Below the pieces are notes generated by a model. That model searched no databases. It was not told the origin of the DNA and saw nothing but the letters and a program-made list of their open reading frames with translations. A stretch of 64,000 nt of DNA from Candidatus Poribacteria bacterium (lineage in GTDB: Bacteria; Poribacteria; WGA-4E; JAJDTR01), in the NCBI GenBank assembly GCA_965208765.1, contig OZ242354.1, positions 1,383,343 to 1,447,342 of the forward strand, in the 5' to 3' direction. Numbering within the stretch: position 1 is the first letter of the stretch; the number at the start of each line of letters is the position of its first letter. Positions 5,332 through 47,863 of the stretch are shown here, one piece after another. The position numbers and the translations under genes are program-made.

Positions 5332-5523
5332 AATCTAACCGAAGAGCCGGTATCTTTGACTCGTTAGGTCAACGTAACGCACAGAATGTTGCCGCACATG
5401 GAAACAGAAAAAGAGTTGATTTCCAGTGCCCAATGTGTTACCTTAGGGCTTTCTGAAATCAGGCAAGAATTGACGTTTCGCTCCGTGGGATAAATTGAAC
5501 GTAGGACCTCGGGCTGATGTAGA

Positions 5524-5788
5524 CTAGGTTCTGTTGACATTTACGTGAAGTGAGTGTCCAATCGTAGGGGCGAGGTTCCCTCGCCCGTTAAATGACGGGT
5601 TGGGAAACCCAACCACCAACTGAGCGAATAACGAAGGATCAAGGGAGCGGTTAGCGACCGCGATAGAAATCCCGTAGCGATCCCCTACGAAGATTGACCC
5701 AGTGTAGAGAGATCCCTTGTGGTTGCCCAACATTCTGCCTCAAGTGAATCAATATTGGCTCAATTTTCAAATGTCAACAGAACCTAGT
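5524..5788. repeat. structured element of about 265 bp (copy 1) bounded by a perfect 19-bp inverted repeat ctaggttctgttgacattt
   Basis: Perfect inverted repeat at both ends. Nested stems inside: cgtagggg...cccctacg enclosing gggcgagg-ttcc-cctcgccc and gggttggg-aaa-cccaacc. It shares a conserved core with 19600-19860. Confidence 0.5.
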
Positions 5789-5959: not shown

Positions 5960-6373
5960 ATGCGATTTCAACACAGAAACCTTGCCATTTCACTTTTATT
6001 GATCAGTTTAGGGGCAACTGTTGGTTGTGCGAAAATTCTCGAAGATCAAACAGAACTAGAACGCGTCGAGGCGACTTTCTTTTACGATCCTACGTCGGCA
6101 TCCGTCCTCGGTGCCTATTCAGTTAAGTTGCCTGAAGAACGTCTCATACGAAGAATCATTGTCCATTCGCTTGACCCAATTCGAAACACTGATATTTATG
6201 TTCGAACTGGGGAACACGGATGGATTCATACAAGACAAATTAAGGGCTGGCTCAAAGGTGCTTCGACCATTGATATTCGAGCTAAGGGCGATGCGGTTCG
6301 AGTTATTCCCAAGACTGTACTGATTCGTGTCATTAAAGACATTGAAGTCTTTGCCGTGCCCAAACCAAATTAA
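5960..6373 (+). CDS. putative lipoprotein (small secreted protein family; the interrupted gene at 32954-33405 is a paralog)
   Basis: Signal peptide with a Cys (LLLISLGATVGC). It is homologous to the two fragments of the interrupted gene at 32954-33405 (PEERLIRRIIVH.../...IDIRAKGDAVRVIPK). Confidence 0.5.
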   Translation: MRFQHRNLAISLLLISLGATVGCAKILEDQTELERVEATFFYDPTSASVLGAYSVKLPEERLIRRIIVHSLDPIRNTDIYVRTGEHGWIHTRQIKGWLKGASTIDIRAKGDAVRVIPKTVLIRVIKDIEVFAVPKPN

Positions 6374-14534: not shown

Positions 14535-14748
14535 CTAAACTCGGTAGGTGCGGTTTCCTAACCGCGCCGAGCATTGTTAGGATATTACCGAATTATTTTT
14601 TTTAACTTCATTTAGTGGTCTATTCGCTAAGAATTTAATGCTTACGAGACTGGCACAGAAAACTGTTCTACCACGCCGGTAGGTGCGGTTTCTAACCGCA
14701 CCGGCACCCAACTCTAACCATATTGTTTTGGAAAATAAACCATTTAGT
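14535..14748. repeat. 132-bp hairpin repeat family: degenerate half unit plus one full unit
   Basis: Contains ggtaggtgcggtttc(c)taaccgc and the full consensus gtggtctattcgctaagaatttaatgcttacgagactggcac...ccggtaggtgcggtttctaaccgcaccggcaccc...ggaaaataaacc. It matches the tandem array at 46496-47034. Confidence 0.85.
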
Positions 14749-19454: not shown

Positions 19455-19490
19455 CATACGGTAGGTGCGGTTTCCAACCGCACCGAGGTC
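19455..19490. repeat. solo copy of the repeat-family hairpin (ggtaggtgcggtttccaaccgcaccg)
   Basis: Same hairpin as the core of the 132-bp repeat. It sits about 60 nt after the aminotransferase stop. Confidence 0.6.
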
Positions 19491-22288: not shown

Positions 22289-24571
22289 CTATTTCAAAAT
22301 CACCATCCGGCGCGTAACGGAATAAGCGTCAGTCTCTAGCCGATAGAAATAAAGTCCCGACGCAACCGGTTCGCCAAGTCCATCTCGCCCATCCCAGTAC
22401 GCTGCACGGTTCCGACTCGTATACACGCCCGCAGGTTTGTGCCCGATCATCAGCGTTCGTACTCTCCGCCAGTTCATATCATAAATCGTCAACACTACCT
22501 CGGAGGGCTCCCCCAACTGATACGGTATCCATGTGTCCGGATTAAACGGATTGGGGTAATTCGGTAGCAATGCCGTCTGATTGGAAGTTAAAGAAGTGAC
22601 TGAGCGTGATAGTTCTAACAGTAGCCCGGTCTTATTGACGACTTCTATTCGTTTAACGCCGCCCCATGTCGTAGGAAGTCTGAGATCCCACAGCAGAACC
22701 GTGCTATCCCAACTCCCGCTGGCAAGCGTGTTCCCATCGGGAGAGAACGCTACAGAGTTGACTCTCCACCTATGTCCTGATAAGGTTCGTACCTGTTTCC
22801 CGGTGCGAACCTCCCACAGACGAACCGTTCTGCCGTAATTCCCGCTACCACTCGCAAGCATTCTTCCATCAGGCGAGAAGACGACACAAGTCACATCGTC
22901 CATATGGCAAGAGAGAGATTGCAAGTGTTCGCCGGTGATAGAATTCCACAAACGAATTGTACCGTCATCGCTTCCGCTAGCAATCGTGGTGCCGTCGGGT
23001 GAATATGCAACTGAATTTATCGTCCACTTGTGCCCGGCAAGAATCTTCGAGGTCTTTCCAACGCGGAGATCCCACACACGAATCGTTCCATCCCTGCTGC
23101 CACTGGCAAGCGTATATCCGTCGGGCGAGAATACTACGGAAGTGACTCCCTCCGTATGGCCGGAAAGAGTCCGCAAGTGCTCGCCGGTGAGAGAATCCCA
23201 CAAACGAATGGTGTTGTCGTGGCTGCCGCTCGCAAGCGTGAACCCTTCGGGCGAAAACGCAACCGTGTTAACTCCTTTCTGATGACCTTGAAGGCTGTGC
23301 AGGAGGTCCCCTGTACCCGAATCCCACAGACGAATCGTCTTGTCGTATTCCGCGCTCCCACTGGCAAGCATCATCCCATTGGGTGAGAAGGTTACCGAGG
23401 TGACCCAACCTGTATGCCCGGAAAAAATTCGCACAACTTTCCCGGTGCGCATGTCCCACAGACGGACGGTCCGGTCCCAACTTCCACTAGCCATTGTGTT
23501 CCCATCGGGAGAGAAGACAGCGGAGTTTATTCTGCCCGTTTGGCCCGCAAGAGCCCGAAAGCGTTTCCCTGTGCGAACATCCCAAATACGAACCGAGTTG
23601 TCGTAACTCCCACTGGCTAATGCGGACCCGTCAGCCGAATATGCTAAGCTGTGGACTCCCTCGGTGTGCTCCTCGAAGGTCATCAGGGCTTCCCCGGTGC
23701 GTGCATCCCACAACCAAATCGCCCCGTCATATCCTCCGCTGGCAAGCTCGTCTCCACCGGGTGAGAAGACTACGGAAGCAACTCTAGCTTTATGTTTTAT
23801 AAGCGTCTGAAGGTGTACTCCAGTGCGTGTATCCCACAACCGAATAGTGTTGTCGTGACTGCCACTGGCAAGTGTGAACCCATCAGGAGAGAAAGCTACG
23901 CTCCAAACTCCACCTGCGTGCCCTTCAAGGATCATCAGGGCTTTTCCAGTCCGAGCCTCCCACAGCCGAATTGTCTCGTCGGTACTCCCACTGGCTACCG
24001 CGCTTCCGTCGGGGGAAAACGCCACGGAAGTGATCATTTGCCTATGACCTTTAAGGGTGAGCAACTCTTCCCCTGACCGCACATCCCACAAACCAACCGT
24101 GTTGTTCCAACCGCCGCTCGCAAGTGTCAATCCGTCTGGGGAAAACGCAATGGAAGTGGCTCTGCCCGGATGTTTGAATGTCTGAAGGCGACGACCCGTA
24201 CGTGTTTCCCAGATTTGAATCGTATCAACATAAGATCTAAGGGAGAGTCTGGAATTAGAAAAACTGGCATTGGCAAACGTGTGCCCACTGGGCGAAAATG
24301 CCACGGCAGTGGTCCATCCCGTTTCTGCCGCATGTAGCGCGACTTCGACATCGGTGTTCGCATCGTAGAGCCAAACGCCGATGCTACCCCCGACCGCCAG
24401 CCACGCCCCATCAGGCGAATGCGCGATGTGGGATACAGAACCTTTGCCGAAACGTGCTGCGGCGCCGTCGGGCAGATACCAGCGGGTAACGTCGTGAGCG
24501 AAGCTGCTCCCGAACAACAAAGCAGAAACCAAAATAAGACCAAGCTTAACCAAGGAGTTTTTTCTCATCAA
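22289..24571 (-). CDS. WD40-repeat (beta-propeller) protein with C-terminal T9SS-type sorting domain
   Basis: Signal peptide. About 14 WD40 repeats (GH...SVAFSPDG...LASGSxDxTIRLWD). The C-terminal about 90 aa match the Por-secretion-tail/FlgD-Ig-like pattern (NYPNPFNP...GVYTS..WDGRD..GEPVASGLYFYRL). Confidence 0.85.
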   Translation of the reverse strand: MMRKNSLVKLGLILVSALLFGSSFAHDVTRWYLPDGAAARFGKGSVSHIAHSPDGAWLAVGGSIGVWLYDANTDVEVALHAAETGWTTAVAFSPSGHTFANASFSNSRLSLRSYVDTIQIWETRTGRRLQTFKHPGRATSIAFSPDGLTLASGGWNNTVGLWDVRSGEELLTLKGHRQMITSVAFSPDGSAVASGSTDETIRLWEARTGKALMILEGHAGGVWSVAFSPDGFTLASGSHDNTIRLWDTRTGVHLQTLIKHKARVASVVFSPGGDELASGGYDGAIWLWDARTGEALMTFEEHTEGVHSLAYSADGSALASGSYDNSVRIWDVRTGKRFRALAGQTGRINSAVFSPDGNTMASGSWDRTVRLWDMRTGKVVRIFSGHTGWVTSVTFSPNGMMLASGSAEYDKTIRLWDSGTGDLLHSLQGHQKGVNTVAFSPEGFTLASGSHDNTIRLWDSLTGEHLRTLSGHTEGVTSVVFSPDGYTLASGSRDGTIRVWDLRVGKTSKILAGHKWTINSVAYSPDGTTIASGSDDGTIRLWNSITGEHLQSLSCHMDDVTCVVFSPDGRMLASGSGNYGRTVRLWEVRTGKQVRTLSGHRWRVNSVAFSPDGNTLASGSWDSTVLLWDLRLPTTWGGVKRIEVVNKTGLLLELSRSVTSLTSNQTALLPNYPNPFNPDTWIPYQLGEPSEVVLTIYDMNWRRVRTLMIGHKPAGVYTSRNRAAYWDGRDGLGEPVASGLYFYRLETDAYSVTRRMVILK

Positions 24572-24956: not shown

Positions 24957-25093
24957 TCTTCCGCCCTTCCTTTCCAGCGCGGAAACTCCCGCATTATTCG
25001 AATAATCGATCGCCTACCATGCGGTTACCGAAGCAGGTAGTTGGGCCGATATGAGAATCGTATAACTCAAAGACCCGATAACAACACTATGAC

Positions 25094-25253
25094 ACTAAGT
25101 GGTCTATTCGCTAAGAATTTAGTGCTTCCGAGACTGGCACAAGAAACGGTTATACCGTTCCGGTAGGTGAGGTTTTTAACCGCACCGGCACCCAACAATA
25201 ACCATATTTTTTTGGAAAATAAATCACTAAGTAGCCTATTCGTTAAGAGCATG
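25094..25253. repeat. 132-bp hairpin repeat family: one full unit plus a partial unit abutting the IS left end
   Basis: gtggtctattcgctaagaatttagtgcttccgagactggcac...ccggtaggtgaggtttttaaccgcaccggcaccc...ggaaaataaatcactaagtagcctattcgttaagagcatg. Confidence 0.8.
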
Positions 25254-25263
25254 TTTGAAAAGT

Positions 25264-27092
25264 ACATTTGTAGGGTGCGCACGGCGCACCAGCCTTTAAA
25301 GCCCCAGTGGGGCGGAAGGTGTGTAGAAATACCGAAACCCTGTACGCCAAAGCCCCAGCGGGGCGACAGGTACATAGCGGTAAATTACAAAAACGCGTCT
25401 TCAAATGACTAAAAATGGCTTTGCTACCGAATTTTCAAACAGGTTCTAAGCTCGACTTTGTACAAAACTAGAAGGGGAATAAGGTAAAATTAGTCGAAAA
25501 AGCAACACCATTCGACTAAGGAGGTACACCTTGATTCCCCCATCGCTGATAACATTGTTAACTCCGTTTCAATCATTGTTTCGACGTCCTAGCTGGATTA
25601 AAATCCAAATCTTACTCGTTGGAACAATCCTTTTAACCGGTAGGCGAACAGTAACTCAAGCCCTGAGAGTGACCGGTCGGTCAGCCGACAATCGGTTTGC
25701 TCTGTATCACCACGTGCTTAGCCGTGCGGTTTGGTCCCCTCTGCAAGCCGCCCAAAAACTGTTGTTTACGTTATTGAAGTTCCTCGACGACGGTAAGCAA
25801 CCGTTAGTATTTGGCATTGATGAAACGATTGAGCGCCGCTGGGGAGCCAAAATCAAAGCACGAGGTATCTATCGTGATGCCGTGCGTTCTTCATCAAGCC
25901 ACTTTGTCAAAACCAGCGGATTACGTTGGATAGCGCTGATGTGGCTAACACAGATTCCCTGGGCATCATGTATCTGGGCGCTGCCGTTTTTGACGGCACT
26001 TGCACCCTCCAAACGTTACTATGAGTCTGAAAAACGTTGCCACAAGAAACTCACTGACTGGGCAAGACAAATTGTATTTCAACTTCGCCGGTGGTTGCCC
26101 AATCGTTACTTGGTTGTGGTCGCTGATTATAGTTATGCGGTGTTAGAATTCCTTGCAGCTTGCCAAGAATTGTCAAATCCGGTAACCATTATCACTCGTT
26201 TGCGACTTGATGCAGCACTCTACCAACCTGCTCCACCTTATAGCGGTACAGGACGTCCTTGTAAGAAAGGAGAGCGGTTACCTACCTTGGCTGACATTCT
26301 GCATGACCCAAACACCCAATGGCAGAACCTTGATTGGTATAACGGTCAACAAAGAGAAATGCAAATCATCTCACAGCCAACCGTTTGGTATCACACGGGC
26401 AAACCCCCGGTGTCAATCCGCTGGGTTTTGATACGAGACCCTCTTGGCAGTTATGAACCGATAGCCCTTTTATCAACTGACACAACACTTTGTCCCAACC
26501 AGATAGCCAACTGGTATGTTCGTCGCTGGCGAATGGAAGTCACTTTTGAAGAAGTGCGTGCCCATCTAGGCGTGGAAACACAAAGACAATGGTCGGATAA
26601 AGCGATTGCTCGCACGACTCCAATGCTATTTGGACTGTTCTCTTGGATTACCTTAGCTGCTCATCTACTGGTTCAACAGAATCAAGTAGAAGTGCGACAG
26701 GCTGCATGGTATCAGAAATCGTTAGCCACCTTTTCTGATGCAATAGGGTGGGTGAGACACCATTTTTGGTCTGCAGAAGCGGACATGACTTTTTCACAGG
26801 TCAACCAAAATGACCAGATGGTTAAAATCTCAACCGCTTTTCTCGAACGCTTGATTGACACCGTCTGTTATTCCGCTTAAATGTACAAAGTCGAGCTGAG
26901 AACCTGTTTGAATAATCGGTAGCGAAACCATTTTGGGGCATTTGTAGAAGTTTTTTCACGATTTTATTGTCTCCTGCTACGTACCTGTCGCCCCGCTGGG
27001 GCTTAGGTGCACGGGGTTTTGGCATTTCTATACACCTTCCGCCCCTCTGGGGCTTTTAGAGGCTGGTGCGCAGTGCGCACTCTACAAACGTA
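25264..27092 (+). mobile_element. IS4/IS701-like insertion sequence with about 210-bp terminal inverted repeats
   Basis: The left region (25264 to about 25470) and the reverse complement of the right region (26882 to about 27092) align along their whole length (tacatttgtagggtgcgcacggcgcaccagcc...gctcgactttgtaca). They flank a single DDE transposase ORF. Confidence 0.8.
25531..26880 (+). CDS. DDE transposase, IS4 superfamily (IS701-like)
   Basis: 449 aa. Candidate catalytic D (GIDETIERRWG), D (VVVADYSY) and E within a Y-x2-R-x3-E-x6-(K/R) motif (YVRRWRMEVTFEEVR). Confidence 0.85.
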   Translation: MIPPSLITLLTPFQSLFRRPSWIKIQILLVGTILLTGRRTVTQALRVTGRSADNRFALYHHVLSRAVWSPLQAAQKLLFTLLKFLDDGKQPLVFGIDETIERRWGAKIKARGIYRDAVRSSSSHFVKTSGLRWIALMWLTQIPWASCIWALPFLTALAPSKRYYESEKRCHKKLTDWARQIVFQLRRWLPNRYLVVVADYSYAVLEFLAACQELSNPVTIITRLRLDAALYQPAPPYSGTGRPCKKGERLPTLADILHDPNTQWQNLDWYNGQQREMQIISQPTVWYHTGKPPVSIRWVLIRDPLGSYEPIALLSTDTTLCPNQIANWYVRRWRMEVTFEEVRAHLGVETQRQWSDKAIARTTPMLFGLFSWITLAAHLLVQQNQVEVRQAAWYQKSLATFSDAIGWVRHHFWSAEADMTFSQVNQNDQMVKISTAFLERLIDTVCYSA

Positions 27093-27264
27093 CTATTCAA
27101 ACAGGTTCTAAACATTTACAATGAAAGAAACCTGGATTTCAAGGGAAAAGAGGAGGATTGAGGGAAAATCGAAGTGGGGAATGGATTACCAAAAAAGGAA
27201 TCCTCATTTTTCGAGGGAGGGGACGAACTTGGAGTATTTTAAGCGTCTCTGCGCTCCACAACTG

Positions 27265-29508
27265 TTATAACTCAACGGCTATGCCCAAGTAAGGGATAAT
27301 CGGGAATTGATAGATATCTTCTTTTTCGGTGTAATCGTCGTTGTAGCTGAAGTCGAGTAGGTTCTTGCGGTTATAGGCGTTCAACAGTTCGAGAAAGACG
27401 CGCATCTGCCAATTAGAAAAGCGAAAGGCCTTGCTAATCTTCACGTCCAGCCGATGATAGGCCGGCAAACGTGCTGAATTGGTCTCCGCGTAGATTGGGA
27501 CGTAGATGAATTCGTCGTTGCGCGGGTCGGATTTTAAGTCAGCCCCGAGCACCGGCGTGTAGGGATTGCCGGTCCGGTATTGCCATTTCGTGCCAATTTC
27601 CCAGGTTGGAGTCGGACTGTAGGTCGCCGCAAGCGTCGCCACGTGCGTTTGGTCGAACGAATAGAAGCGGTACGGTTCGCCGGGGCTATCCCGCCGTTTG
27701 GAGAGTCCATAGGCATAAGAACCCCAACCGAGGAATCGCTCCCCGGTTTGATGTCGTAGGAACACCTCGGTGCCCTGCGCGAACCCGACGCCCTGATTGA
27801 GATAATTTGCTTCGTCATCGTTGGTCACCAAGTCGACGAGGTTCTTGTAGTAACCGGCGAGCTTGATCTCGGTCGTCTCAGAGATTTCACGCGTATACTC
27901 CAGTACGTAGTGACTGGCTCGGCTGGTGCTCAACTCCGGGTTGCCGACGCTCCGCGTAAGCCTCGGCGGTGTCGGCACTTGCTGATAGTTGCCGTAGGAA
28001 AACTGGACCTGAGAACCCGGCGAGATTTCAAACAGGAGACTTCCGCGCGGTTGGATGGAGAGTCCGTCAATCTGATTCAAGTAATCCGTTCGCAAGCCGA
28101 GTACGACTGACAAAAATGGCAATACCCTGTATCGGTCTTGCAGATAGATTTCAAGTCGTTTTCCAAGTGAGGATTCGTCGATCGATTGCTTCTCGATAAA
28201 CCGGGGATCGTAATCGACTTCGCCCTCATCAGGCGGACGCAGAAAATTGCCGGTAGCCCTACCCGGTTCGAGTCCGAGTATCAAACCGGATTCAATCTGA
28301 TGTTTCGGCGTCAGCGTGTAGGTGAGGTCCTCGCGAATCACGTACTGCGGCGCATCAACTTTGAGCGATAGATCAGCGCCGATATTGACATCAAACGCGA
28401 AAAAGGAACGGGTCAAGGATAGATAGGAGGTCAAGCGGTCAGTGAGAAGGGAACGGAGGTGAATACCGGCTCCCTCGAAACCGCTGTCAAAGTCTATATT
28501 CCCTCTTAGATCCTCGTCCACATCTTCGCCATCCAGCTTGAGCGCGAAGCTGTCACCGGAGGCAAATAAATTGAGCGAGAGTTGATGCTTTTCAGAGAGG
28601 TTATAACCTCCCTTTATCTGATAATCCCAAAATCGGGGGAAGGCGGTGATTTGTCCGCTATCAAATGACAATGACCTGAGAAACAGGTCGATGTAGCTTC
28701 TTCGTCCGGCTGCATACCAAAATCCCTTGTCGCCAATCTTGCCTTCTAATAGCCCTTCGGAGTAGAGCAAATTGAGGTTGAATTTTGCATCGAAACCGTC
28801 CGTGTTTTTGTTCCTTGAATAGATGTCGATCACGGCCTGGGAGTCGACGCCAAATTCGGCGCCGTAACCGCCGGCGTAGACGTCAATCCGTTCAATGACT
28901 TCGGAACTGAGGGAGGAAACAATTCCGCCGAAATGGTAAGGGTAACCGATCGGCACCCGGTCAAAGTAATAGAGGTTGTCTGTATCGGCGCCGCCGCGGA
29001 TATACAGGGCGCCGCTAAAGTCGTTTGCCACACCGACAGCGGGCAAGGATTGTAGGGCGCGGAGAGCGTCTCCCGCCGTGCCGGGGACGCGCTGAATCTC
29101 TGCGCCGCCCAAACTCTGTCTGCCAACCGACGGCAAAGGACGATCGGTTGTAACCTCTACTTCGTCAAGGGGCACAACAACCGGCTCAAGTAAGATTTCA
29201 ACACGCGTGATTTCCGCCGGCGCTACGGTAGCCGGGGTATCCGTAGAAGGTAGGTATCGTGAAGCGTATGCGGCAAGGGTATAATGCCCGGGTGGCAGGT
29301 TGCGAATCTGAAACTCGCCGTTCGCATCGGTGAGAACGCGCTGACCGGTCTCGACGATGCGCACTTGTGCGGATTCGATGGGCTGTTTAAGATTCTGTTG
29401 AAGGACTGTGCCGTAGATTTCGCCGGATTGGCTTGAAGCCTGCTGTCCATATGCGATACAGGGACATAGGCACAATACGAATAGTATTTTAGTGCAAATC
29501 TGTTTCAC
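27265..29508 (-). CDS. TonB-dependent outer-membrane receptor with N-terminal carboxypeptidase-regulatory-like domain
   Basis: Signal peptide. CarbopepD_reg-like start (GEIYGTVL...ANGEFQIRNLPPGHYTL). Plug domain and a long barrel ending in a C-terminal aromatic residue (…IPYLGIAVEL). Confidence 0.85.
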   Translation of the reverse strand: MKQICTKILFVLCLCPCIAYGQQASSQSGEIYGTVLQQNLKQPIESAQVRIVETGQRVLTDANGEFQIRNLPPGHYTLAAYASRYLPSTDTPATVAPAEITRVEILLEPVVVPLDEVEVTTDRPLPSVGRQSLGGAEIQRVPGTAGDALRALQSLPAVGVANDFSGALYIRGGADTDNLYYFDRVPIGYPYHFGGIVSSLSSEVIERIDVYAGGYGAEFGVDSQAVIDIYSRNKNTDGFDAKFNLNLLYSEGLLEGKIGDKGFWYAAGRRSYIDLFLRSLSFDSGQITAFPRFWDYQIKGGYNLSEKHQLSLNLFASGDSFALKLDGEDVDEDLRGNIDFDSGFEGAGIHLRSLLTDRLTSYLSLTRSFFAFDVNIGADLSLKVDAPQYVIREDLTYTLTPKHQIESGLILGLEPGRATGNFLRPPDEGEVDYDPRFIEKQSIDESSLGKRLEIYLQDRYRVLPFLSVVLGLRTDYLNQIDGLSIQPRGSLLFEISPGSQVQFSYGNYQQVPTPPRLTRSVGNPELSTSRASHYVLEYTREISETTEIKLAGYYKNLVDLVTNDDEANYLNQGVGFAQGTEVFLRHQTGERFLGWGSYAYGLSKRRDSPGEPYRFYSFDQTHVATLAATYSPTPTWEIGTKWQYRTGNPYTPVLGADLKSDPRNDEFIYVPIYAETNSARLPAYHRLDVKISKAFRFSNWQMRVFLELLNAYNRKNLLDFSYNDDYTEKEDIYQFPIIPYLGIAVEL

Positions 29509-29734
29509 GTAGTGCTATTTTCCTCGCGTCCTTTTCAAGTCGACATTAATGACGTCAAATGGTCCGACCGTGTTTACACCTTGACGCCAAAAAAGATGCG
29601 AAAATAGAAGAAGCGTTGCATCGGCTGAAATTCCCTTGGATTTCTCGTATAGGTTTGGGTCAATCAGCAAAAAAGCCATAAGAGGCGCGATTATTGCACC
29701 TCGGCAATAACTCGGTTCTCGACACAAGTCTGTA

Positions 29735-29800
29735 GGGTGCGCACTGCGCACCAGTCTCTAAAAGCTCAGCTTTGGCGGAAGGTGTGTAGTAACACCTGAA
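29735..29800. repeat. solo fragment of the IS terminal inverted repeat outer end
   Basis: gtctgtagggtgcgcactgcgcaccagtctctaaaagc...ggcggaaggtgtgtag matches the outer about 70 bp of the IS terminal repeat. Confidence 0.6.
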
Positions 29801-29982
29801 TTTCGCCTACCTAAGCCATGACGGGATCAGGCCAGTCTATAGCGAGCGCGATAGCTGTCCGACAGGCATTTTGACGCGTAGCTACACCACGATGAAAAAG
29901 CTTGTCTTCAAAGGACTGAAAATTGCTTTGCTGCAACTAATAATACAGGATCTGACGATCGGTATAAAAAATTTCCTCCACT

Positions 29983-30605
29983 GTACATCTGTAGGGTGGG
30001 CACTGCCCACCATTTCCTTTACGGTGCGATCAATCGACTGGATAAGGGTCAACCGAGCGGACAATGAGGGCGGCAGAAAATACCGTGCGATTGAGCACCT
30101 ACCAGCCTTTGAAAGCAACAACGGCGCGACAGGTGCATAGCACCGGGGAGTTTACCACATTCAAACCTAAGTTGGTGGATAAATGCCCCATCCTCGGATG
30201 TTATGTCGCTCAAATTATAAGCTCGACTTTGTACATTTGAGCAGTATAACAGACGGTGTCAATCAAGCGCTGGAGAAAAACGGGTGAGATTTTACCCATC
30301 TGGTCTTATGGGTTGACGTGTGAAAAAGTCTTCGCTATAGACTAGAACTGGTGTTTCACGCAACCCGATGCATCGGGGCAAATCGCTGGCGATTTCTAAA
30401 AGCCTCTAACCTTTAGATCTCTATCGTCTTCGCTATTTGCTCAGTTGATCCCACGCCGGGGCTTTGGTTTAGTGTGGCTTGGCTTGCTATACACCTTTCG
30501 CGCCGCTGGCGCTCTCAAAGGCTGGAAGATCTCCATCGCGCTCATTATTCATTCACTTGATTGCAGTACGCACCTTACAAGAAATGGTGGGCAGTGCCCA
30601 CCCTA
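29983..30605 (-). mobile_element. internally deleted (non-autonomous) copy of the IS at 25264-27092, in reverse orientation
   Basis: A full terminal repeat (29983 to about 30245) is followed by the last about 60 nt of the transposase gene in reverse complement (encoding ...QRLIDTVCYTAQ). About 200 bp of unrelated sequence follows, then a terminal repeat outer end in the opposite orientation (30455-30605). Confidence 0.6.
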
Positions 30606-30622
30606 CAAATGTACAAAGTCGA

Positions 30623-30745
30623 GCTAAGAATTTAATGCTTACGAGACTGGCATAAGAAACGGTTCTACCACGCCGGTAGGTGCGGTTTCTAACCGCACCG
30701 GCACCCAACAATAACCATATTTTTTTGGAAAATAAACCACTAAGT
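30623..30745. repeat. 132-bp hairpin repeat family copy directly abutting the IS-derived terminal repeat
   Basis: gctaagaatttaatgcttacgagactggcataagaaacggttctaccacgccggtaggtgcggtttctaaccgcaccggcacccaacaataacc...ggaaaataaaccactaagt. Confidence 0.85.
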
Positions 30746-30955: not shown

Positions 30956-32614
30956 CTAGTGCCAAATGCGGGGGCTGTTATCGGCGACCGCCGACACGTG
31001 TTTCTGGGAAGAGGAAAAGATGAGGGCACTATCGGGCAAAGGTTGGGCAGCCAATAGCAGACAAGTTGACGGGGAACTTCCCCTTTGCCAAGCCTCGATG
31101 AACGGTGTTTCGCTTAGCCGCTTCGTGTGTCGTTCAAGCGGATTTGTTAGGCTGATCTGACCAGCTTCTGTGTCCCATGCAGTCATCACCCACGGGTGTG
31201 TACCGCCTACAAGTGATCGCAACATCACAATCGGCGTCCAGTTTTCCGCCAGCAATTCGCGCAGATCGGTTGGGTCACAGTGAGAGATTAAGAGCGGATG
31301 TTGGCCTGCGCTTCGAGCGACTCGTCGCAATTGGGCAAGAGAGTATGCGTCAAACTCTTGAGCGCTTCGGACGGCGCGAAGACGGCGGAAGGCATTGCTG
31401 ATTGAGTGGCTAGATGCCTGCATGTGGAAGCGTTTTTCTCCAGCGATCACGCGAGGATTTCCAATCTTCTCGTCAGGAATACTCAACTGAGAGACAAATG
31501 ATCCTATCTCTCTGTCGGGATTTATCCGTGGATTGAGGCGAGCGATGACGGCTCTGTCGAGACAGTGGTTCATACGTATACCAAGCCGTGTTGCGGCAAA
31601 GACCTCGTCTGGCGTGATAGATATAATCGCCGAAATTAATTCAGGGACGACTATATCCATTTTCTTTGGCGTGAGTATAAGGGAACTTGAATCCAATACA
31701 TTAGATGCTTGAGCCGGACAAACCGCTTCCAGCGTACGAGGTTCCAGTATCGGCGTTTTCCTGTGCACGCTTCTTCGTGAGAAAGGTAAATCCTGCCGGG
31801 CTGGAGATTCACGAGAATTCCCCTCGCTGGTCGGCAATGGAGAGCGAACATGCGCCGGATTTGTGAGGGTGACAATATTCGTTTCCTGAGATTCATTCGT
31901 ATGGTTTTCGCCGGTCACATCCATCGAACCGTAGATTAGGACCGTTACAACTGCTAGATGTGCAGCTATCGAGATAAACCCTGAGATCGGTGTCGCCGTG
32001 GATGCAGAAACACCTGATCCATCTACACGGTGTCGGAAACCTCTCCACGGCAAAACGAAGCAACTTAGATAGAATCGCAGTTTCACCTGCAAGGATTTTC
32101 GTGCCACGCTGAACAAAGACTTAACCGCTTGTACACTGCCCCCGATCTGTTTGGCAATTTCCCGATACCCAAGCCCTTCAAGCAGACGTAGTTTTGCGAC
32201 TGATCGCTGACGCTTTGGAAGCGCGTCAATCGCTTTCTGGATTTCTCCTTGTAGTTCCCTGTCAGTTGCCTCATCTAACGGATCACGTCCGCTGCCAGGT
32301 ACCGCTGCGAGAACATCGTCATTGCGGTCTACCTCAACATGATAATTGCGTCGATAATTGTCAATGCACTGATTTTTCGCGACCCGATGTAGCCAGGCGT
32401 GATAGCTGCGGCGATGATCAAAGGAATCAATGTGTGACACGACCTTGAGAATCGCTTCTTGATAGATGTCCTCCGCTTCCTCGTAGGATCTGGCCATCTG
32501 TGCAATCAGTCGAATCATGCGCACGCGGTAACGCTGATCAAGCGCGGCAAGAGCCGTAAGGTCACCCCTCTTGAGACGTATCACAAGCTCCTGATCAGTT
32601 GGTTCGCATGACAT
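30956..32614 (-). CDS. ECF-type RNA polymerase sigma-70 factor fused to a transmembrane/periplasmic C-terminal extension of about 350 aa
   Basis: N-terminal sigma-70 region 2 and region 4 (DIYQEAILKV...; ALPKRQRSVAKLRLLEGLGYREIAKQIGGSVQAVKSLFSVARKSL). Then a hydrophobic segment (ISGFISIAAHLAVVTVLIYG) and a long domain I cannot assign. Confidence 0.7.
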   Translation of the reverse strand: MSCEPTDQELVIRLKRGDLTALAALDQRYRVRMIRLIAQMARSYEEAEDIYQEAILKVVSHIDSFDHRRSYHAWLHRVAKNQCIDNYRRNYHVEVDRNDDVLAAVPGSGRDPLDEATDRELQGEIQKAIDALPKRQRSVAKLRLLEGLGYREIAKQIGGSVQAVKSLFSVARKSLQVKLRFYLSCFVLPWRGFRHRVDGSGVSASTATPISGFISIAAHLAVVTVLIYGSMDVTGENHTNESQETNIVTLTNPAHVRSPLPTSEGNSRESPARQDLPFSRRSVHRKTPILEPRTLEAVCPAQASNVLDSSSLILTPKKMDIVVPELISAIISITPDEVFAATRLGIRMNHCLDRAVIARLNPRINPDREIGSFVSQLSIPDEKIGNPRVIAGEKRFHMQASSHSISNAFRRLRAVRSAQEFDAYSLAQLRRVARSAGQHPLLISHCDPTDLRELLAENWTPIVMLRSLVGGTHPWVMTAWDTEAGQISLTNPLERHTKRLSETPFIEAWQRGSSPSTCLLLAAQPLPDSALIFSSSQKHVSAVADNSPRIWH

Positions 32615-32953
32615 AGCACACCTCTAATCCGTACAGCTAACGATATATACGCGAAAATGCTCCAAAGGGTCAAAAAAAACAGCATCTTATTCGGTGTTTC
32701 CCGACTAACGTCCCCTCACTCGTCTCAGACATCCTCGGTTCTCCTCCGCCCAAAGCCAATTGGAGGAGCATTTTTGGCGTTGGCCTCTCGTGTAAGCATT
32801 CGCTCTCGCAGCAGTCCGCACCCCATCTGCAATTCTCGATTTTGACCTTTCCCAATCATTCTGCGTACATCAAAGCAAGTGACATTCTCGTTTACGATAT
32901 GTTTTGGTTCATCATGGACGGCAAATCAATTGGCATACCTGGGAGGTAACACT

Positions 32954-33405
32954 ATGAGAAGATTTCACCCGCACCTGTTCATCAGTTGTTTGTTAGTCAC
33001 TAGCTGTGCGACCTTGCTCTCGGAACAGCAATATATCCAAGTTGATGAGAAAGTCACAGAAACCGTTCTACCACGCCGGTAGGTGCGGTTTCTAACCGCA
33101 CCGGCACCCAACATAACCATATTTTCTTGGAAAATAAACCACTAATGTACTCAATTCCCGAGAAAAGAGAAATCCGGAGAATCATTATTTTGGGCGAAGG
33201 AACAGTGACTAATGTTGATATTTATGCTCGCAACTCGGAGAATAATTGGAAGCGAATTAAGAAAATCAAGAAGACTGTAGGATTTCCGATTGAAATTAAT
33301 GTAGTTCTAAAGGCCGACGCTGTTCGGATTAACCAGAAAAGAATACGAGGCAGGGGCAGCATCAATTCGGTCCGATTTTTCGCGCTTTCGAAAGAACAGC
33401 AGTAG
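32954..33405 (+). pseudogene. lipoprotein-family gene (paralog of 5960-6373) interrupted by insertion of a repeat-family copy
   Basis: The N-terminal fragment (MRRFHPHLFISCLLVTSCATLL...QVDEKVTE) and the out-of-frame C-terminal fragment (YSIPEKREIRRIIILGEG...INVVLKADAVRI) are both homologous to the 5960-6373 product. They are separated by a repeat copy of about 91 bp (33055-33146). Confidence 0.55.
33055..33146. repeat. 132-bp hairpin repeat family: hairpin-containing half unit inserted into a coding sequence
   Basis: cacagaaaccgttctaccacgccggtaggtgcggtttctaaccgcaccggcacccaacataaccatattttcttggaaaataaaccactaa. Confidence 0.8.
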
Positions 33406-33430
33406 TTCAGGCCCGATTTTCCGGGCGTCA

Positions 33431-34708
33431 TTACTTTGGTATCTCCGCCGTAATTACACGCGGTCCGTTCGCAGTAATCAGAACATTATCCTCAATCCGA
33501 ACTCCTCCAACCGATCTCCAGTCGCCAAGCGACTCCCAATCTACACTGTCCCGGAAACGCTCACGCTTCTCCGGGTCATCAAGGATGGCAGGAACAAAGT
33601 AGATTCCAGGCTCCACCGTCATTAGGAAGTGTTCTTCCAATGGGAAATTTATCCTCACGCGCACCCCGCAGCACGATTCAACCTTGTCGCGCCCTGGGGC
33701 ATGTCCGCCAACATCGCGCACTCCAAGTCCCGTCATGTGACCGATGCCGTGCGGGAAGAACAGGGCAATCGCCCCCGAATCGAGTAGACCGTCCACTTCG
33801 CCTTTGAGAATTCCGAGATCCCGCAATCCACGCGCGAGGACACTCGCCGACGCACGGTGTACATGGTGCCACTCTATACCGATGCAGCATTTCGAAATTC
33901 CCTCGGACTCTGCAGCAAGTACCAGGTCATAGATGGCTTGCTGCCTCGATGTGAACCCATTCTCGGCGGGATACGTGCGTGTCACATCCGCCGTGTAACC
34001 GGAAATCGCCCCGCCTGCGTCTATCAGCACCAGATCGTCAGCGTTCACAATCCGTTCACCGGGTTCGAAGTGGAGCACGGCCGCATGCGAACCGACTCCC
34101 ACAATCGTACCGTAACCCACGCTATCCGCCCCTTGTCGAAACATTTCCGCTTCCAATTCAACCTGGATTCGACGCTCGCTTATTCCGGGTCGAATGACCT
34201 CGCGCGCCTTAGCGTGCCCCGCCGCCGTGGCTTTGACTGCGCGTTCAAGGAGCCCTACCTCCGCGGAATCCTTGCGTCGCCGTACCGTATCGAGCCGCGC
34301 CCTCATCTCCACAGCGAATTCTTCATCACCCTCGACGCCTTGGATAGGCGAGCCAAGCACTGCTATTTCCGTGCTGGAGTTGCGCTCCAACCAGTCGGAG
34401 AGTCCGGCGATATCCTTGCCTTCAGGTGCGTCTGGGTTCCCTTCCCATAACCGTTCCGTTGGCGTAACCGGGCGAACAAAATGGGTCCAGCCCTCCTGTT
34501 GGCTATATGCAAGAACTCCGCCTGAGCGTTGAGAACCGGTCAGCCAGTAGTATTCGGGATGCGCCGTAAAGGGATAGGTTTGGTCAAGCCCCCCGGGGAT
34601 GGAAATCGGCTCGCCCGCACCAATCAGAACAGTCGGCGACTGATTTCCTAACGCTTCGGCAGCGTGTCGCCTCCTTTTTTCCAAGACGTCTTTTTCAAAT
34701 ATCGCCAT
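33431..34708 (-). CDS. pepP: Xaa-Pro aminopeptidase (M24B family)
   Basis: M24 metal-ligand motifs (DAGG...GYTADVTRT; HGIGHMTGLGVRD; VEPGIY...EDNVLI). Confidence 0.85.
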   Translation of the reverse strand: MAIFEKDVLEKRRRHAAEALGNQSPTVLIGAGEPISIPGGLDQTYPFTAHPEYYWLTGSQRSGGVLAYSQQEGWTHFVRPVTPTERLWEGNPDAPEGKDIAGLSDWLERNSSTEIAVLGSPIQGVEGDEEFAVEMRARLDTVRRRKDSAEVGLLERAVKATAAGHAKAREVIRPGISERRIQVELEAEMFRQGADSVGYGTIVGVGSHAAVLHFEPGERIVNADDLVLIDAGGAISGYTADVTRTYPAENGFTSRQQAIYDLVLAAESEGISKCCIGIEWHHVHRASASVLARGLRDLGILKGEVDGLLDSGAIALFFPHGIGHMTGLGVRDVGGHAPGRDKVESCCGVRVRINFPLEEHFLMTVEPGIYFVPAILDDPEKRERFRDSVDWESLGDWRSVGGVRIEDNVLITANGPRVITAEIPK

Positions 34709-44095: not shown

Positions 44096-44329
44096 AGCTA
44101 TTTTGGCTGTCGTCGTGATTTGGCGGTTTTATCCTGCACGAACCAATCTGTTCAACCCGTAGCTTGGGGTAAGTGTACCTCTTTCACGTTGACACACCTC
44201 CGTCCCGTTGGTTAGAATCTCCCGACGATAAGATCCTTGGCACAATCAACCTTCCGACCAAAACATCCTAGCTCCATGCACCGAACGTCAGGCTTACCTG
44301 CGAGAATCTCGAATCGCGCGAACAGATCT

Positions 44330-45871
44330 ATGAAACATCATCGAAATACCATTCTCGCCATTCTTTCCGGCATTCTTCTTGTCCTGAGCCACCCCAGTTT
44401 TAACCTGTTCCCGCTCGCATGGATAGGACTTGTACCACTTTTGATAGCCGTAAAGTCCGTCCCAAACGTAAAATCCGCCTTCCGGATCGGTTATATTTCT
44501 GGATTGACGTTCTTCGGGGGGCTAATCTACTGGATTGTGCTGCTCTACCCGTTTGCAAACATTTTTGTCACTGTGCTGGGATATGCGGCTCTGGTCGCCT
44601 ACGCGGCTCTGTACTTCGCCGTCTTTTCACTCGCGGTGCATCAGTTGCCGCGAAAATCGGGGATGTCGTTCATTTTTCCGGCAGCGCTGTTTTGGACAGG
44701 GTTGGAGTGGATTAGGAGTTGGTTACTGACAGGTTTTCCGTGGGGTAGCATGGGCTACTCCCAGTGGAGCAATCACGCCGCCATCCAAATCTCCTCCATC
44801 ACCGGGGTCTACGGCGTTAGCTTCGTTATCGTGCTTTTCAACGCGGCAATCGCGTACTTAGTCATCTCGTCTTCCAACTGGCGAAGTGCAATCAAGGGAG
44901 TTGTATTCCCGGTCGCCATTGCGGCACTCACGTTCGCCTACGGCGCGTTCTGCTTATCCAATTCAGGAAGTGCGGCAGCGCGCGTTAAACTCGGGCTTGT
45001 TCCCGGTCATATACCGCAAGCCGAGAAGTGGAAATCGAAACACGCCCCCCGGATCTTCAAGCGATACCTTCGTTTAACCGAAAAAGCGAATGCCGCTAAC
45101 CCGGATATGGTCGTGTGGCCCGAAACTTCTATTCACCCCCAAATAACCTCCGGGCAGGCGAAATCGTATAAAAAACAGCTATCCGAAACGCTGCAAAACG
45201 GCCAAATCTATCTCCTTGCCGGCACGGCAGTCAGAGGGGTTGACAAGAAGGTATACAACAGTGTCTTGCTGCTCTCTCCATCGAACGAGAAACTCGGCAA
45301 CTATTCCAAGATGCATTTGGTGCCTTTCGGGGAATATGTGCCGTTCTCCAGCGCCCTTCCGAACTTCATCCAATTCGAGACATTCGCACCCGGAAAGTCG
45401 ATCAACCTTTTGCCGCTCGCCGATATAGAAGATGCCGAAATGGGAATTGCCATCTGTTTTGAGTCGGTGTTCCCCAATCTCTTTCGCAAGTTCGTGGCGA
45501 AGGGGGCAGACATTATGGGTATCTTGACCAACGATTCTTGGTTTGTAGGCACGACTGCACCCGCCCAACATCTATCCGCCGCGCCGTTCCGAGCCGTCGA
45601 AAACCGCATCTCCGTTTTCCGCTGTGCCAACGGAGGAATCTCCTGCATAATCGATCCGTTCGGGAGGATAACCAGTCGCACTATCACCCCAGCCCAACCC
45701 GATGGCGTTCTGGTAGAAGAAGTGCCTCTGAAAAATCATCAGAGCACAGGGGCGACGCTTTACACGCGCTACGGCGATTGGTTTCCCATTCTCTGTTTGT
45801 TGGCGAGCCTCGTACTAATTGGTCATCGAAACCGGACTTGGCTTCACTCCAAACTTCGGCGCGCCACCTGA
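44330..45871 (+). CDS. lnt: apolipoprotein N-acyltransferase
   Basis: N-terminal multi-transmembrane region followed by a CN-hydrolase domain (MVVWPETS...; catalytic Cys region AICFESVFP). The start was chosen at the Met immediately preceding the first transmembrane helix. The track ORF begins at 44237. Confidence 0.8.
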   Translation: MKHHRNTILAILSGILLVLSHPSFNLFPLAWIGLVPLLIAVKSVPNVKSAFRIGYISGLTFFGGLIYWIVLLYPFANIFVTVLGYAALVAYAALYFAVFSLAVHQLPRKSGMSFIFPAALFWTGLEWIRSWLLTGFPWGSMGYSQWSNHAAIQISSITGVYGVSFVIVLFNAAIAYLVISSSNWRSAIKGVVFPVAIAALTFAYGAFCLSNSGSAAARVKLGLVPGHIPQAEKWKSKHAPRIFKRYLRLTEKANAANPDMVVWPETSIHPQITSGQAKSYKKQLSETLQNGQIYLLAGTAVRGVDKKVYNSVLLLSPSNEKLGNYSKMHLVPFGEYVPFSSALPNFIQFETFAPGKSINLLPLADIEDAEMGIAICFESVFPNLFRKFVAKGADIMGILTNDSWFVGTTAPAQHLSAAPFRAVENRISVFRCANGGISCIIDPFGRITSRTITPAQPDGVLVEEVPLKNHQSTGATLYTRYGDWFPILCLLASLVLIGHRNRTWLHSKLRRAT

Positions 45872-46495
45872 ACAACACCGGATTCCTCAAACCCTGTAGG
45901 AGCGAGCAAGCGAACGGCCAGTGAGTGCAATGGAGTTTCGCTCCTGGTCGCGACCAAACCAATCCTCGATCGCCAACTACGCGATTTCCGCTTCCCTTCT
46001 AGTCATTGTTCCGCTCTCCAATCGTCCGCGTACAACCGATCCCTGCACCAAGTCGCCACAGCCCACTGCTTTTAGCCCTACTGTGCGATATTGTCGGCAT
46101 CTGATCAAAGATTCGTTTTGTCCCAATACTGAGGGTATCGAGATCGGGGTATCAGACACGGGATTTGCACCTCGAAAAACCTTACCTGAACATATCCAAA
46201 TTTCTTTTGGTGCCAGGTGCAAATTTCAGATGCTGTTTCCGCGGGCGACATCCGAGAAATGGTTGCCAAAATGCGGCGGCAATGTTAACATTCTACCGGA
46301 AAAAGTCGCGGTCTATGCCGCGAGCCGCATCAACTGGAGGACAGCGCGGAGATGCAGTTAGCCTTTATTGAGGGGGATTGTGAGAATTACACCAATTCTC
46401 ATGCATCGAATGCCGGAAAGTTGTCCGAGGCCTCTTTTCAGGAGTATGAAGCGGTTTCGGATGATGATATTGACGCACTCATTGATGAGATGAAG

Positions 46496-47034
46496 CCACT
46501 AAGTGGTTCATTCGCTAAGAATTTAATGCTTACGAGACTGGCACAAAAAACTGTTCTACCACGCCGGTAGGTGCGGTTTCTAACCGCACCGGCTCCCAAC
46601 ACTAACCATATTTTTTTGGAAAATAAACCACTTAGTGGTCTATTCTCTAAGTATTTAATGCTTACGAGACTGGCACGAGAAACCGTTCTACCACGCCGGT
46701 AGGTGCGGTTTCTAACCGCACCGGCTCCCAACACTAACCATATTTTTTTAGAAAATAAACCACTAAGTGGTCTATTCGCTAAGAATTTAATGCTTACGAG
46801 ACTGGCACAAAAAACTGTTCTACCACGCCGGTAGGTGCGGTTTCTAACCGCACCGGCTCCCAACACTAACCATATTTTTTTGGAAAATAAACCACTAAGT
46901 GGTCTATTCGCTAAGAATTTAACGCTTGCGAGACTGGCACAAGAAACTGTTCTACCACGCCGGTAGGTGCGGTTTCTAACCGCACCGGCTCCCAACACTA
47001 ACCATATTTTTTTGGAAAATAAACCACTAAGTGA
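46496..47034. repeat. tandem array of 4.1 units of the 132-bp hairpin repeat
   Basis: Unit starts at 46496, 46628, 46760, 46892 and 47024, an exact 132-bp period. The units are over 90% identical and each contains the hairpin ccgg-ta-ggtgcggtt-tct-aaccgcacc-gg. Confidence 0.9.
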
Positions 47035-47059
47035 AAAATAATGAGGGTAGGAGATAGTA

Positions 47060-47404
47060 ATGGAAGAATGGATTAAGTTTATCGCCCTACTGGTCGGGAT
47101 TGTGGGGTTGTGGTGGAAGCTCACCACCTCGATGGCGACCAAAGCGGAAGTAACGGCAGTAAAGACCGAACTCAGGGTTGAAATAGCTGAGGTTAAGGCG
47201 GACCTCAAAGAAGATATAGCCGAGGTAAAATCCGACATGGCAGCCATGAAAGGGGAGCTAAAATCTGAAATTGCCGAGTTGAAATCCGACATGGCGGGCA
47301 TGAAGGCAGATATCAAAGCGGAGAATGCAGAGCTAAGGGCGGACATCAGGGAGATTCGGCAACTGCTATACAAAAACGTTGTCGAGACCGAGAAGCATGA
47401 ATAA
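47060..47404 (+). CDS. small membrane-anchored protein with 11-residue amphipathic (apolipoprotein/LEA-like) repeats
   Basis: N-terminal transmembrane helix (FIALLVGIVGLWW), then 11-mer repeats EIAEVKADLKE/DIAEVKSDMAA/MKGELKSEIAE/LKSDMAGMKAD/IKAENAELRAD. A GGAG ribosome-binding site lies 7 nt upstream. Confidence 0.5.
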   Translation: MEEWIKFIALLVGIVGLWWKLTTSMATKAEVTAVKTELRVEIAEVKADLKEDIAEVKSDMAAMKGELKSEIAELKSDMAGMKADIKAENAELRADIREIRQLLYKNVVETEKHE

Positions 47405-47863
47405 TCGAGATGCGGTGTCGCGCGACGGTAACAGGTATTCGCAAATTGATGTTTTGCGGAACCCTCTCCGTCTATCTGCAAGAGAATCTCTTGAAAACGA
47501 CAGTGAATAAGGTATAGTCATGATAGATTTATTTCTACTATGGCGGTGGATGAAAAAAGAACGCGACGGTGAGACTCGATTGGCAAAACAAAGGGGTAGA
47601 ATAGAAGGGGCAAATGCGAGGGATAAAGTATGGATTTCGTGGTACGAGCGCAAGATGCAAGCGGAGCAGAATGGTGTTGAGTTTGATGAACCTCCGCCTC
47701 ATTTAGTGCCGCGCAAGCGTGCTAAAATAGTTAGGAGGTAAAGAGAGATTGTGACGCCGACAATGCGAAGCGAATTGGTAGGTATTGGGAGACTGGGCAG
47801 GGGATTTCTATCGCACTCCCTGATCGGTCGTTTGATTGCTCCCACTGCCCATATCCGCCGAGA

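Follow-up and report, generated by a model that had tools for sequence, protein, structure and literature searches.

A partial MITE copy in a lipoprotein gene of Candidatus Poribacteria and the IS630-family elements that share its ends

Insertion into the dinucleotide TA, together with its duplication, is the hallmark of the studied IS630/Tc1/mariner elements (PMC2170065). The repeat unit of pneumococcus (RUP) is a MITE mobilised in trans by one of the IS630 family, IS630-Spn1. It is non-coding and about 100–130 nt long, its inverted repeats match those of an IS630-family element, and its many copies are dispersed, mostly between genes and sometimes within other elements or genes (PMC2229807). 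The Poribacteria MITE described here is like RUP in its length, its lack of coding, its ends, and the way its copies are dispersed. Other bacterial MITEs, such as the Rickettsia RPE, Correia/NEMIS, and ERIC, are likewise small mobile repeats found within protein-coding genes (PMC2229807). The birth of MITEs from Tc1/mariner elements can involve microhomology-mediated internal deletion, in which the endpoints are short direct repeats and part of the element is removed (PMC3814204); the deletion proposed below would be similar in both points.

The locus considered here is a conserved lipoprotein gene in the window, which is the whole stretch of 64,000 nucleotides analysed. The features discussed are collected in Table 1. 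This family of MITEs and insertion sequences is a new one for Poribacteria, whereas the event itself is ordinary and leaves the current understanding of mobile DNA unchanged. If the history set out below is right, the locus is a clean example of a MITE copy immobilised by a deletion that spans the boundary of the element.

Table 1. Features of the window and of related loci (window positions unless a locus is named)
Feature	Position	Strand	Details
Intact distant paralog	5960..6373	+	137 aa; probable lipoprotein signal; similar to the C-terminal fragment and to the intact ortholog
Full-length MITE copy	14616..14742	+	Flanked by TTTAG; repeat match ~14609-14748
Full-length MITE copy	25100..25226	+	Flanked by CTAAG; repeat match ~25093-25241; site empty in L001
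First 18 nt of second MITE copy	25232-25249	+	Adjoins copy 25100..25226; interrupted by IS701-family element
Remainder of interrupted second MITE copy	30623..30739	+	Element positions 11-127; CTAAG then at 30740-30744; repeat match ~30624-30745
Lipoprotein pseudogene	32954-33405	+	Two out-of-frame pieces split by a partial copy of the 132-nt repeat
Native 5' part of the gene, codons 1-37	32954..33064	+	Signal peptide and lipobox LVTSC; 95% aa identity to L001 ortholog residues 1-40; DNA alignment
Junction microhomology CACAGAAAC(C)	33055..33064	+	Common to native gene (orthologs GTCACAGAAAC[T/C/A]) and element positions 39-49 (CACAAGAAAC[T/C])
5'-truncated MITE copy, element positions 50-127	33065..33141	+	77 nt, one internal 1-nt deletion; hairpin; right inverted repeat ...AATAAACCA
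Premature TAG stop, element-derived	33080..33082	+	N-terminal fragment ends ...KVTETVLPRR, then stop
Native target CTAAT, surviving right duplication copy	33142..33146	+	Leu43 codon and first two bases of Met44 codon; fits nTWAg
Native 3' part of the gene, codons 43-129 and stop	33142..33405	+	Out of frame with the 5' part; 94% aa identity to L001 residues 43-130
Tandem array of four 127-nt MITE copies	46504..47026	+	Separated by 5-nt CTWAG; 132-nt period; repeat match ~46493-47033
Autonomous IS630-family element	L015:2627-3841		1215 nt; MITE inverted repeats; CTAAA on both sides
Autonomous IS630-family element	L024:5314-6641		1328 nt; MITE inverted repeats; CTTAG on both sides

The repeat family and its insertion-sequence partner

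Species-representative genomes were scanned with a 34-nt core pattern of the repeat. The scan returned 62 loci, all in nine Candidatus Poribacteria genomes, and with those of the window 74 MITE copies could be aligned. Judged from its ends and flanks, the 132-nt repeat consists of a MITE of 127 nt and a single copy of its 5-bp target-site duplication, and the two lengths add up to the 132-nt tandem period. The termini are TGGTT...AACCA and the inverted repeats TGGTTnATT...AATnAACCA; in the OZ240209 subfamily the inverted repeats are 16 nt (TGGTyTACTCGCTAAG / CTTAGCGAGnnAACCA). The conserved ends read T-GGTTCATTC... on the left, with the T in 45 of 50 copies, and ...AATAAACC-A on the right, with the A in 46 of 50. 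The five bases outside each terminus vary between copies and match across the two sides of one copy. For example, among 50 solo copies the left and right flanks agree at positions 2–6 in 82–90% of cases, where chance agreement by composition is ~0.37 at the variable position 2 and 0.5 at position 4 (A or T). At positions 1 and 7 the agreement is 40% and 48%, which is the chance level. The target-site duplication is 5 bp with the consensus CTWAG (nTWAg), and a 2-bp TA or 3-bp TWA duplication was rejected because flank positions 2 and 6 co-vary across the sides.

Other identities for the repeat were rejected as well. It has no coding capacity of its own, and the copy at 30623-30739 has an in-frame TAA in its only long frame. 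A scan against Rfam at gathering thresholds gave no match, so the repeat is not a known structured RNA, and its hairpin is not an intrinsic terminator since the T-run comes about 20 nt after the hairpin rather than adjoining it. A tRNA scan found nothing, and hence no tRNA-linked integration site. A tandemly duplicated 3' end of a gene, with the frame ending in ...KPLSGLFAKNLMLTRLAQKTVLPRR and a stop, was rejected because an internal stop breaks one copy and because transposon ends and duplications are found on the copies. An att site used in site-specific integration is not compatible with flanking pentamers that vary and co-vary, nor is 5' truncation of the retro-element kind compatible with a partner that is a DDE transposase. 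Most of the copies lie between genes. When the element was removed in silico, a stop-free stretch spanned the site for only ~5 of 50 copies, in every case near the end of an ORF.

The autonomous partner was sought as distant pairs of MITE inverted repeats, and two such elements were found, in L015 and L024. Each encodes an HTH_32 part and a DDE_3 part (domain scores of 5e-16 and 2.8e-25), and in the L015 element an A6G run stands between the two ORFs. The NCBIfam model of the IS630 family, NF033545, is matched by ORF2 at 109.8 bits, against a cut-off of 100, and by ORF1 at 69.8 bits, covering half of the model. The left part of the MITE, hairpin included, makes up the left 110 nt of the L024 element, which argues that the MITE is an internal-deletion derivative of an IS630-family element, and the sequences identify it as a non-autonomous derivative of the Candidatus Poribacteria insertion sequence. 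We infer from the shared ends only that the transposase is active and that it is the one that serves the MITE. No IS630-type transposase was found in the 64-kb window; the transposase at 25531-26880 was rejected as the partner since it is of the IS701 family and has unrelated inverted repeats.

All of the features by which a MITE is recognised were found when tested, namely small size without coding capacity, inverted repeats, target duplication, dispersed polymorphic copies, and an autonomous partner. The family is, on comparative grounds, mobile, given its presence/absence polymorphism, the 5-bp duplication in 50 solo copies, and the IS630-family partner. The polymorphism is seen in L001, the closest relative of the window, where the sites of the window insertions at 25095 and 33142 are empty. 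The sequences that flank window positions 25095...30744 are separated in L001 by one pentamer and in the window by 5.65 kb with MITE copies and CTAAG at both ends. The system is probably an active or recently active IS630-type transposon with its MITE in uncultured sponge symbionts, and the 132-nt repeats of the window should be masked as a MITE family.

The TA duplication of IS630/Tc1/mariner elements was not found in this family, since the MITE and both insertion-sequence copies have a 5-bp duplication (nTWAg). A limited literature search found no description of an IS630 variant with a 5-bp duplication. The composition of the flanks (L015:2622-3846, L024:5309-6646, and 50 solo copies in L004-L065) suggests a preferred palindrome, A-CTWAG-T. 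As a tentative proposal, somewhat short of an even chance, the Poribacteria element and its MITE may form an undescribed IS630 subgroup whose transposase makes a 5-bp staggered cut at (A)CTWAG(T), with preferential insertion beside itself accounting for the arrays. Each inserted copy half-rebuilds the palindrome at both junctions, so the element would prefer to insert beside itself, and head-to-tail arrays with an exact 132-nt period would result. The lineage is flagged here for its non-canonical 5-bp duplication and its tendency to form arrays.

The segment at 25089-30743 (5.65 kb) is absent from L001, and its bulk, 25250-30622, sits inside a 127-nt MITE copy with an apparent duplication of ~8 nt (G[TC]TAAGA). 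That bulk has three parts. One is an insertion sequence of the IS701 family, with its transposase at 25531-26880 and long inverted repeats at 25242-27113; another is a TonB-dependent receptor gene on the minus strand (27265-29508); the third is a 634-nt MITE-like element (29982-30615) with matching GTACATTTGTAGGGTG ends. The segment resembles a composite transposon with the receptor gene as its cargo. The four-copy array (46352-47031 region) starts inside a 72-aa ORF, 46352-46570, whose last 23 codons are element-encoded (...KPLSGSFAKNLMLTRLAQKTVLPRR, then stop); here the 127-nt family may have truncated another gene. A 347-aa ORF on the minus strand, 46438-47481, reads through the array and is probably spurious.

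Hairpin-only look-alikes (CGGTAGGTGCGGTTTCC(T)AACCGC...) that have nothing else of the MITE lie at window positions 14542-14569 and 19459-19485, and on the minus strand of L036 just upstream of the core-pattern match at 2821-2854. Their flank TTTTCCCTAAACTCG recurs in L036, so they probably represent another repeat family with the hairpin module in common. A 36-nt dispersed repeat family, D5 (ATCAAGGGAGCGGTTAGCGACCGCGATAGAAATCCC), occurs in the window at 5638, 14788, 19717, 29826, 48219, and 51247, and a small element similar to D5 lies in the hairpin loop of a MITE copy in L015 (L015:3908-3992), making a nest of small elements. Diverged direct repeats with a period of 126–132 nt at 22686-24118 lie within a minus-strand ORF (22289-24571, 760 aa) that is conserved in L001 at 760 aa and has no Pfam match. 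This ORF seems to encode a repeat protein that has nothing to do with the MITE.

The interrupted lipoprotein gene

The first-pass annotation had read the locus as a lipoprotein gene interrupted and frameshifted by a copy of the repeat family, and this reading holds. ORFs 32879/32954-33082 and 33127-33405 are both on the + strand, in different frames. The first, with its ATG at 32954 and its end at 33082, encodes MRRFHPHLFISCLLVTSCATLLSEQQYIQVDEKVTETVLPRR followed by a stop, and the second encodes ...LMYSIPEKREIRRIIILGEG.... Window positions 33055-33143 match the 132-nt unit of the repeat with 94.5% identity across 91 aligned columns (blastn, E=1.5e-35), and the matching segment includes the hairpin GGTGCGGTT/TCT/AACCGCACC at 33082-33102. 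When the L001 protein was searched against the window with tblastn, residues 1–40 fell on 32954-33073 and residues 43–130 on 33142-33405, with 94–95% identity; the 87 codons downstream of the element are out of frame. The gene is monocistronic, with a divergent neighbour upstream and a convergent one downstream, so polar effects are not expected.

When the gene was repaired in silico, its protein matched 17 relatives, of which the full-length ones have 128–129 aa. Only two of the 17 have a source name, and both are labelled Candidatus Poribacteria. The closest relative is 88% identical by BLASTP and 95% identical in a MAFFT alignment. Comparison with related genomes, which had been proposed as a check on the interruption, bears it out: at five syntenic Candidatus Poribacteria loci, with the shared order ECF sigma, lipoprotein, M24 peptidase, the DNA is uninterrupted at the insertion site. 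In L001, L002, and L003 the synteny with the window runs from a 552-aa ECF sigma protein (minus) through the lipoprotein gene to a 425-aa M24 peptidase and an 850-aa M14 peptidase on the minus strand. An intact 129-aa gene is called in L001 and L002, and the insert is absent from the DNA of L003, L066, and L068. In the lipoprotein-gene region the window and L001 share ~95–96% nucleotide identity, and since L001 is without the insert, the insertion postdates the split between the two.

In three of these relatives the ortholog is called truncated although the MITE is missing (L003:5829-6089, L066:3001-3234, and L068:3001-3369). The truncated calls, P0012, P0016, and P0009, were ruled out as independent MITE hits because the DNA of L003, L066, and L068 is insert-free. 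They are probably sequencing errors and not independent pseudogenes, since they come from long-read contigs at 3–4x coverage; the L003 ortholog has an extra base beside a T-run.

Errors of this kind raise the question of whether the broken allele is itself an artefact, with a repeat collapsed into the gene by mistake when the genome was assembled from a metagenome. The window does appear to come from an uncultured Poribacteria genome, and some related gene calls (L003 and L066) do look cut by low-coverage long-read errors. However, the JGI contig Ga0131747_1016821 (L067, sample 3300009938, 1212 nt), which was deposited separately, is 99.9% identical to window 32524-33735, with one mismatch in 1212 nt and the same insert, so the allele is real and not a mis-assembly. 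Also, what the junctions have in common with the gene is just 5–10 nt, and an assembler would not be misled by so short a match. An artefact is thus barely credible.

The first-pass annotation had also named the 137-aa protein at 5960-6373 as an intact lipoprotein paralog with which both fragments are collinear. The paralog is confirmed by significant collinear similarity: the C-terminal fragment matches it with 36% identity over 80 aa (E=1e-13). As for the fragments, the N-terminal one alone found no match to 5960-6373 by BLASTP, so that half of the claim stands only through the intact ortholog, which aligns with the paralog over nearly its full length (31–32% identity, E about 1e-10 to 2e-11). 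This near-full-length alignment shows that the collinearity is real, and the interrupted gene and the paralog are, by these alignments, collinear, though distant at about 31–36% identity. The proper comparator is not that paralog; it is the set of intact 128–129-aa orthologs from other Poribacteria.

The lipobox motif is LLVTSC, and its Cys is invariant across 11 aligned family members; in the interrupted gene it is Cys18, at 33005-33007. An Lnt gene is present in the window at 44237-45871. In a structure model of the intact ortholog (mean pLDDT 82.6), a signal helix at the N terminus (residues 2–20) leads through a linker to a beta-sandwich. By Foldseek the model is weakly to moderately similar to sugar-binding modules of the galactose-binding-like, CBM32, or discoidin type (best E=5.5e-4, TM about 0.5), and the Pfam family F5_F8_type_C matches the lipoprotein below the cut-off (E=0.0087). 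In the model the main beta-strands start at residue 42, so the break would leave the signal peptide and lipobox on one side and the domain on the other. Accordingly, the gene is best read as a pseudogene in which the predicted export and lipidation signal has been parted from the predicted beta-sandwich.

Of course, a split gene could still work, either through an 86-aa product started at Met44 (ATG 33145) by signals borne on the element or through two parts acting separately. The native ATG is kept directly after the end of the element, an 86-aa ORF is called by the gene caller in L067, and the predicted beta-sandwich core, with its strands from residue 42, lies almost wholly in that fragment. 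On the other hand, the fragment has neither signal peptide nor lipobox and could not be delivered to where the intact protein resides. The C-terminal part has also gained four non-synonymous substitutions and one synonymous substitution in the window lineage; this ratio hints at relaxed constraint, though the counts are too small to test. Continued function is therefore quite improbable, and the stretch 32954-33405 should be annotated as a pseudogene of a conserved Poribacteria lipoprotein rather than as two small ORFs.

Junctions and history of the broken allele

In a DNA alignment with the orthologs, the window has 62 nt more, with 78 nt where the orthologs have 16. The 15 nt that precede the 62-nt indel (GTTCTACCACGCCGG) are repeat-like and unlike the orthologs (TTTCTTCCCTCAGG in L001), and the first base to resemble the element rather than the orthologs is G33065. 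Two short stretches, 33055-33064 (CACAGAAACC) and 33142-33146 (CTAAT), belong to the native gene and look like the repeat as well. The truncated copy agrees with the array copies at 79 of 82 positions. Its right junction is canonical: the last base of the terminus ...AATAAACCA is 33141, the native CTAAT comes next, and at the uninterrupted site the orthologs read GGA-CTAAT-G or GGA-TTAAT-G. At the left, element positions 1–49 (including the left inverted repeat), the left CTAAT, and 16 nt of the gene (TTTTCTTCCCTCAGGA in L001) are missing, and the junction of the broken allele reads GTCACAGAAACCGTTCTACC. This left junction lies within an imperfect direct repeat, CACAGAAAC in the gene and CACAAGAAAC in the element, with the shared motif CACA(A)GAAAC. 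The 9/10-nt repeat being imperfect, the exact microhomology may be just 6–7 nt (AGAAAC[C]), depending on the donor copy.

The first-pass annotation had placed the insert at 33055-33146 and taken the hairpin-containing half of the repeat, 91–92 nt, as the unit that moved, with precise excision restoring the gene. In-silico deletion of these 92 nt does restore a single ORF, of 119 aa, so the excision check succeeded in part. The ancestral gene is not restored, since the true orthologs have 129 aa (...KVTETFLPSGLMYSIPEK...), the repaired protein is without 10 of the residues that they have at the break (...QVDEKVTETFLPSGLMYSIPEK...), and 16 native nucleotides are gone. Both ends of the supposed unit, 33055-33064 and 33142-33146, are native. 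None of the 62 loci, which were fetched with a core pattern inside the segment, has another copy that starts there, and a fragment without the left inverted repeat is no substrate for cut-and-paste transposition (general knowledge of IS630/Tc1 elements, PMC2170065). A mobile half-repeat is contradicted by the alignment with the orthologs and is very improbable. The unambiguous element is 33065-33141, the net extra DNA is 62 nt, and what moved was the defined 127-nt MITE, the half-copy being best explained as the remnant of a later deletion. The target-site duplication that was to be looked for at the junctions does not survive at this copy, its left member having been deleted.

The present allele was probably made by a normal MITE insertion followed by a deletion of ~69 nt. 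In the first step, a full MITE would have been inserted by cut-and-paste into CTAAT, in codons 43–44 of the conserved 129-aa lipoprotein gene; the left junction of that insertion is predicted to read ...TCAGGACTAAT directly followed by TGGTCTATTC..., with GGAYTAATTGGTYYATTC as the junction of the intermediate. In the second step, ~69 nt would have been lost between CACAGAAAC, 16 nt upstream of the target in the gene, and CACAAGAAAC at element positions 39–48, by replication slippage or microhomology-mediated repair. Such a deletion would account for the missing 16 nt of gene and the missing left target duplication, and for the loss of 48–49 nt at the left of the element, with its left inverted repeat. 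The arithmetic closes: 132 (element and duplication) less 69, less 1 for the internal deletion, is 62, the net gain observed.

Elsewhere in the family, one MITE insertion is full length in L033 (5653-5779; compared region 5446-5779), while in L014 (reverse complement 2403-2530) ~32 nt at its start and ~205 nt of flank are missing. This pair shows that deletions across the element boundary do truncate copies of the family. A full-length intermediate at the lipoprotein site was not found in genomes or contigs. A metagenome-contig collection scanned for the gene and for the right element-gene junction gave 0 matches; this collection does not include L067, which carries both patterns.

The absence of an intermediate fits another route, in which the element was copied in by one step without transposition. 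Synthesis would switch strands to another MITE at the CACAGAAAC homeology and return at an ACTAA microhomology between the element end with its flanking CTAAG and the gene's GGACTAATG, so that ~16 nt of gene would be exchanged for 78 nt of element. There is microhomology or homeology at both junctions, and the native gene and the element are unusually similar around the left one, with 20 matches in 27 columns, a level reached by 2.65% of 2000 shuffles. Such similarity over ~27 nt (p about 0.03) would favour a one-step homeologous copy-in equally. However, this route requires two independent template switches, whereas a right junction that is an exact canonical terminus at a consensus-fitting pentamer is predicted directly by transposition, and deletions that truncate formerly full-length copies occur elsewhere in the family (L014 versus L033). 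Copying-in is therefore unlikely, and insertion followed by deletion is preferred.

Whatever its route, the copy is not an intact mobilisable MITE, as only element positions 50–127 and the right CTAAT remain. Without a left inverted repeat it cannot be moved by a cut-and-paste transposase, and it shows past, not current, mobility. The earlier claim that the locus supports recent mobility of the repeat can be kept to this extent: the family is mobile and the insertion is younger than a split at ~95–96% identity, but this copy is now immobile and "recent" is a relative term.

Comparison with known systems

The Poribacteria MITE departs from RUP in three ways. RUP targets and duplicates TA, whereas the Poribacteria MITE duplicates 5 bp (CTWAG). 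Unlike RUP, it forms head-to-tail arrays with a 132-nt period, and in the scan of species-representative genomes it was restricted to Candidatus Poribacteria. The partner element has the organisation of IS630 and ISY100, bacterial insertion sequences of the Tc1/mariner type: an N-terminal HTH, a C-terminal DDE_3, and a match to NF033545, in an element of 1.2–1.3 kb whose inverted repeats are short and whose target is a palindrome with T-A at its centre. It differs from them in its duplication, which is 2 bp of TA as a hallmark in IS630 and ISY100 (PMC2170065) and 5 bp in the MITE and the two insertion-sequence copies here, and in a transposase whose reading frame is divided into two ORFs at an A6G slippery run.

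The effect on the host gene also differs from that of the intragenic repeats described in other bacteria. The well-known Rickettsia RPE, Correia/NEMIS, and ERIC insertions are mostly in-frame fusions that keep the host protein, while the Poribacteria copy is out of frame, brings a stop codon, and stands where gene DNA has been lost, which is plain inactivation. Lastly, the deletions that accompany MITE birth from Tc1/mariner elements are internal to the element (PMC3814204); the one proposed here would span the element boundary, take host DNA along with one inverted repeat, and so immobilise the copy instead of giving rise to another mobile derivative.
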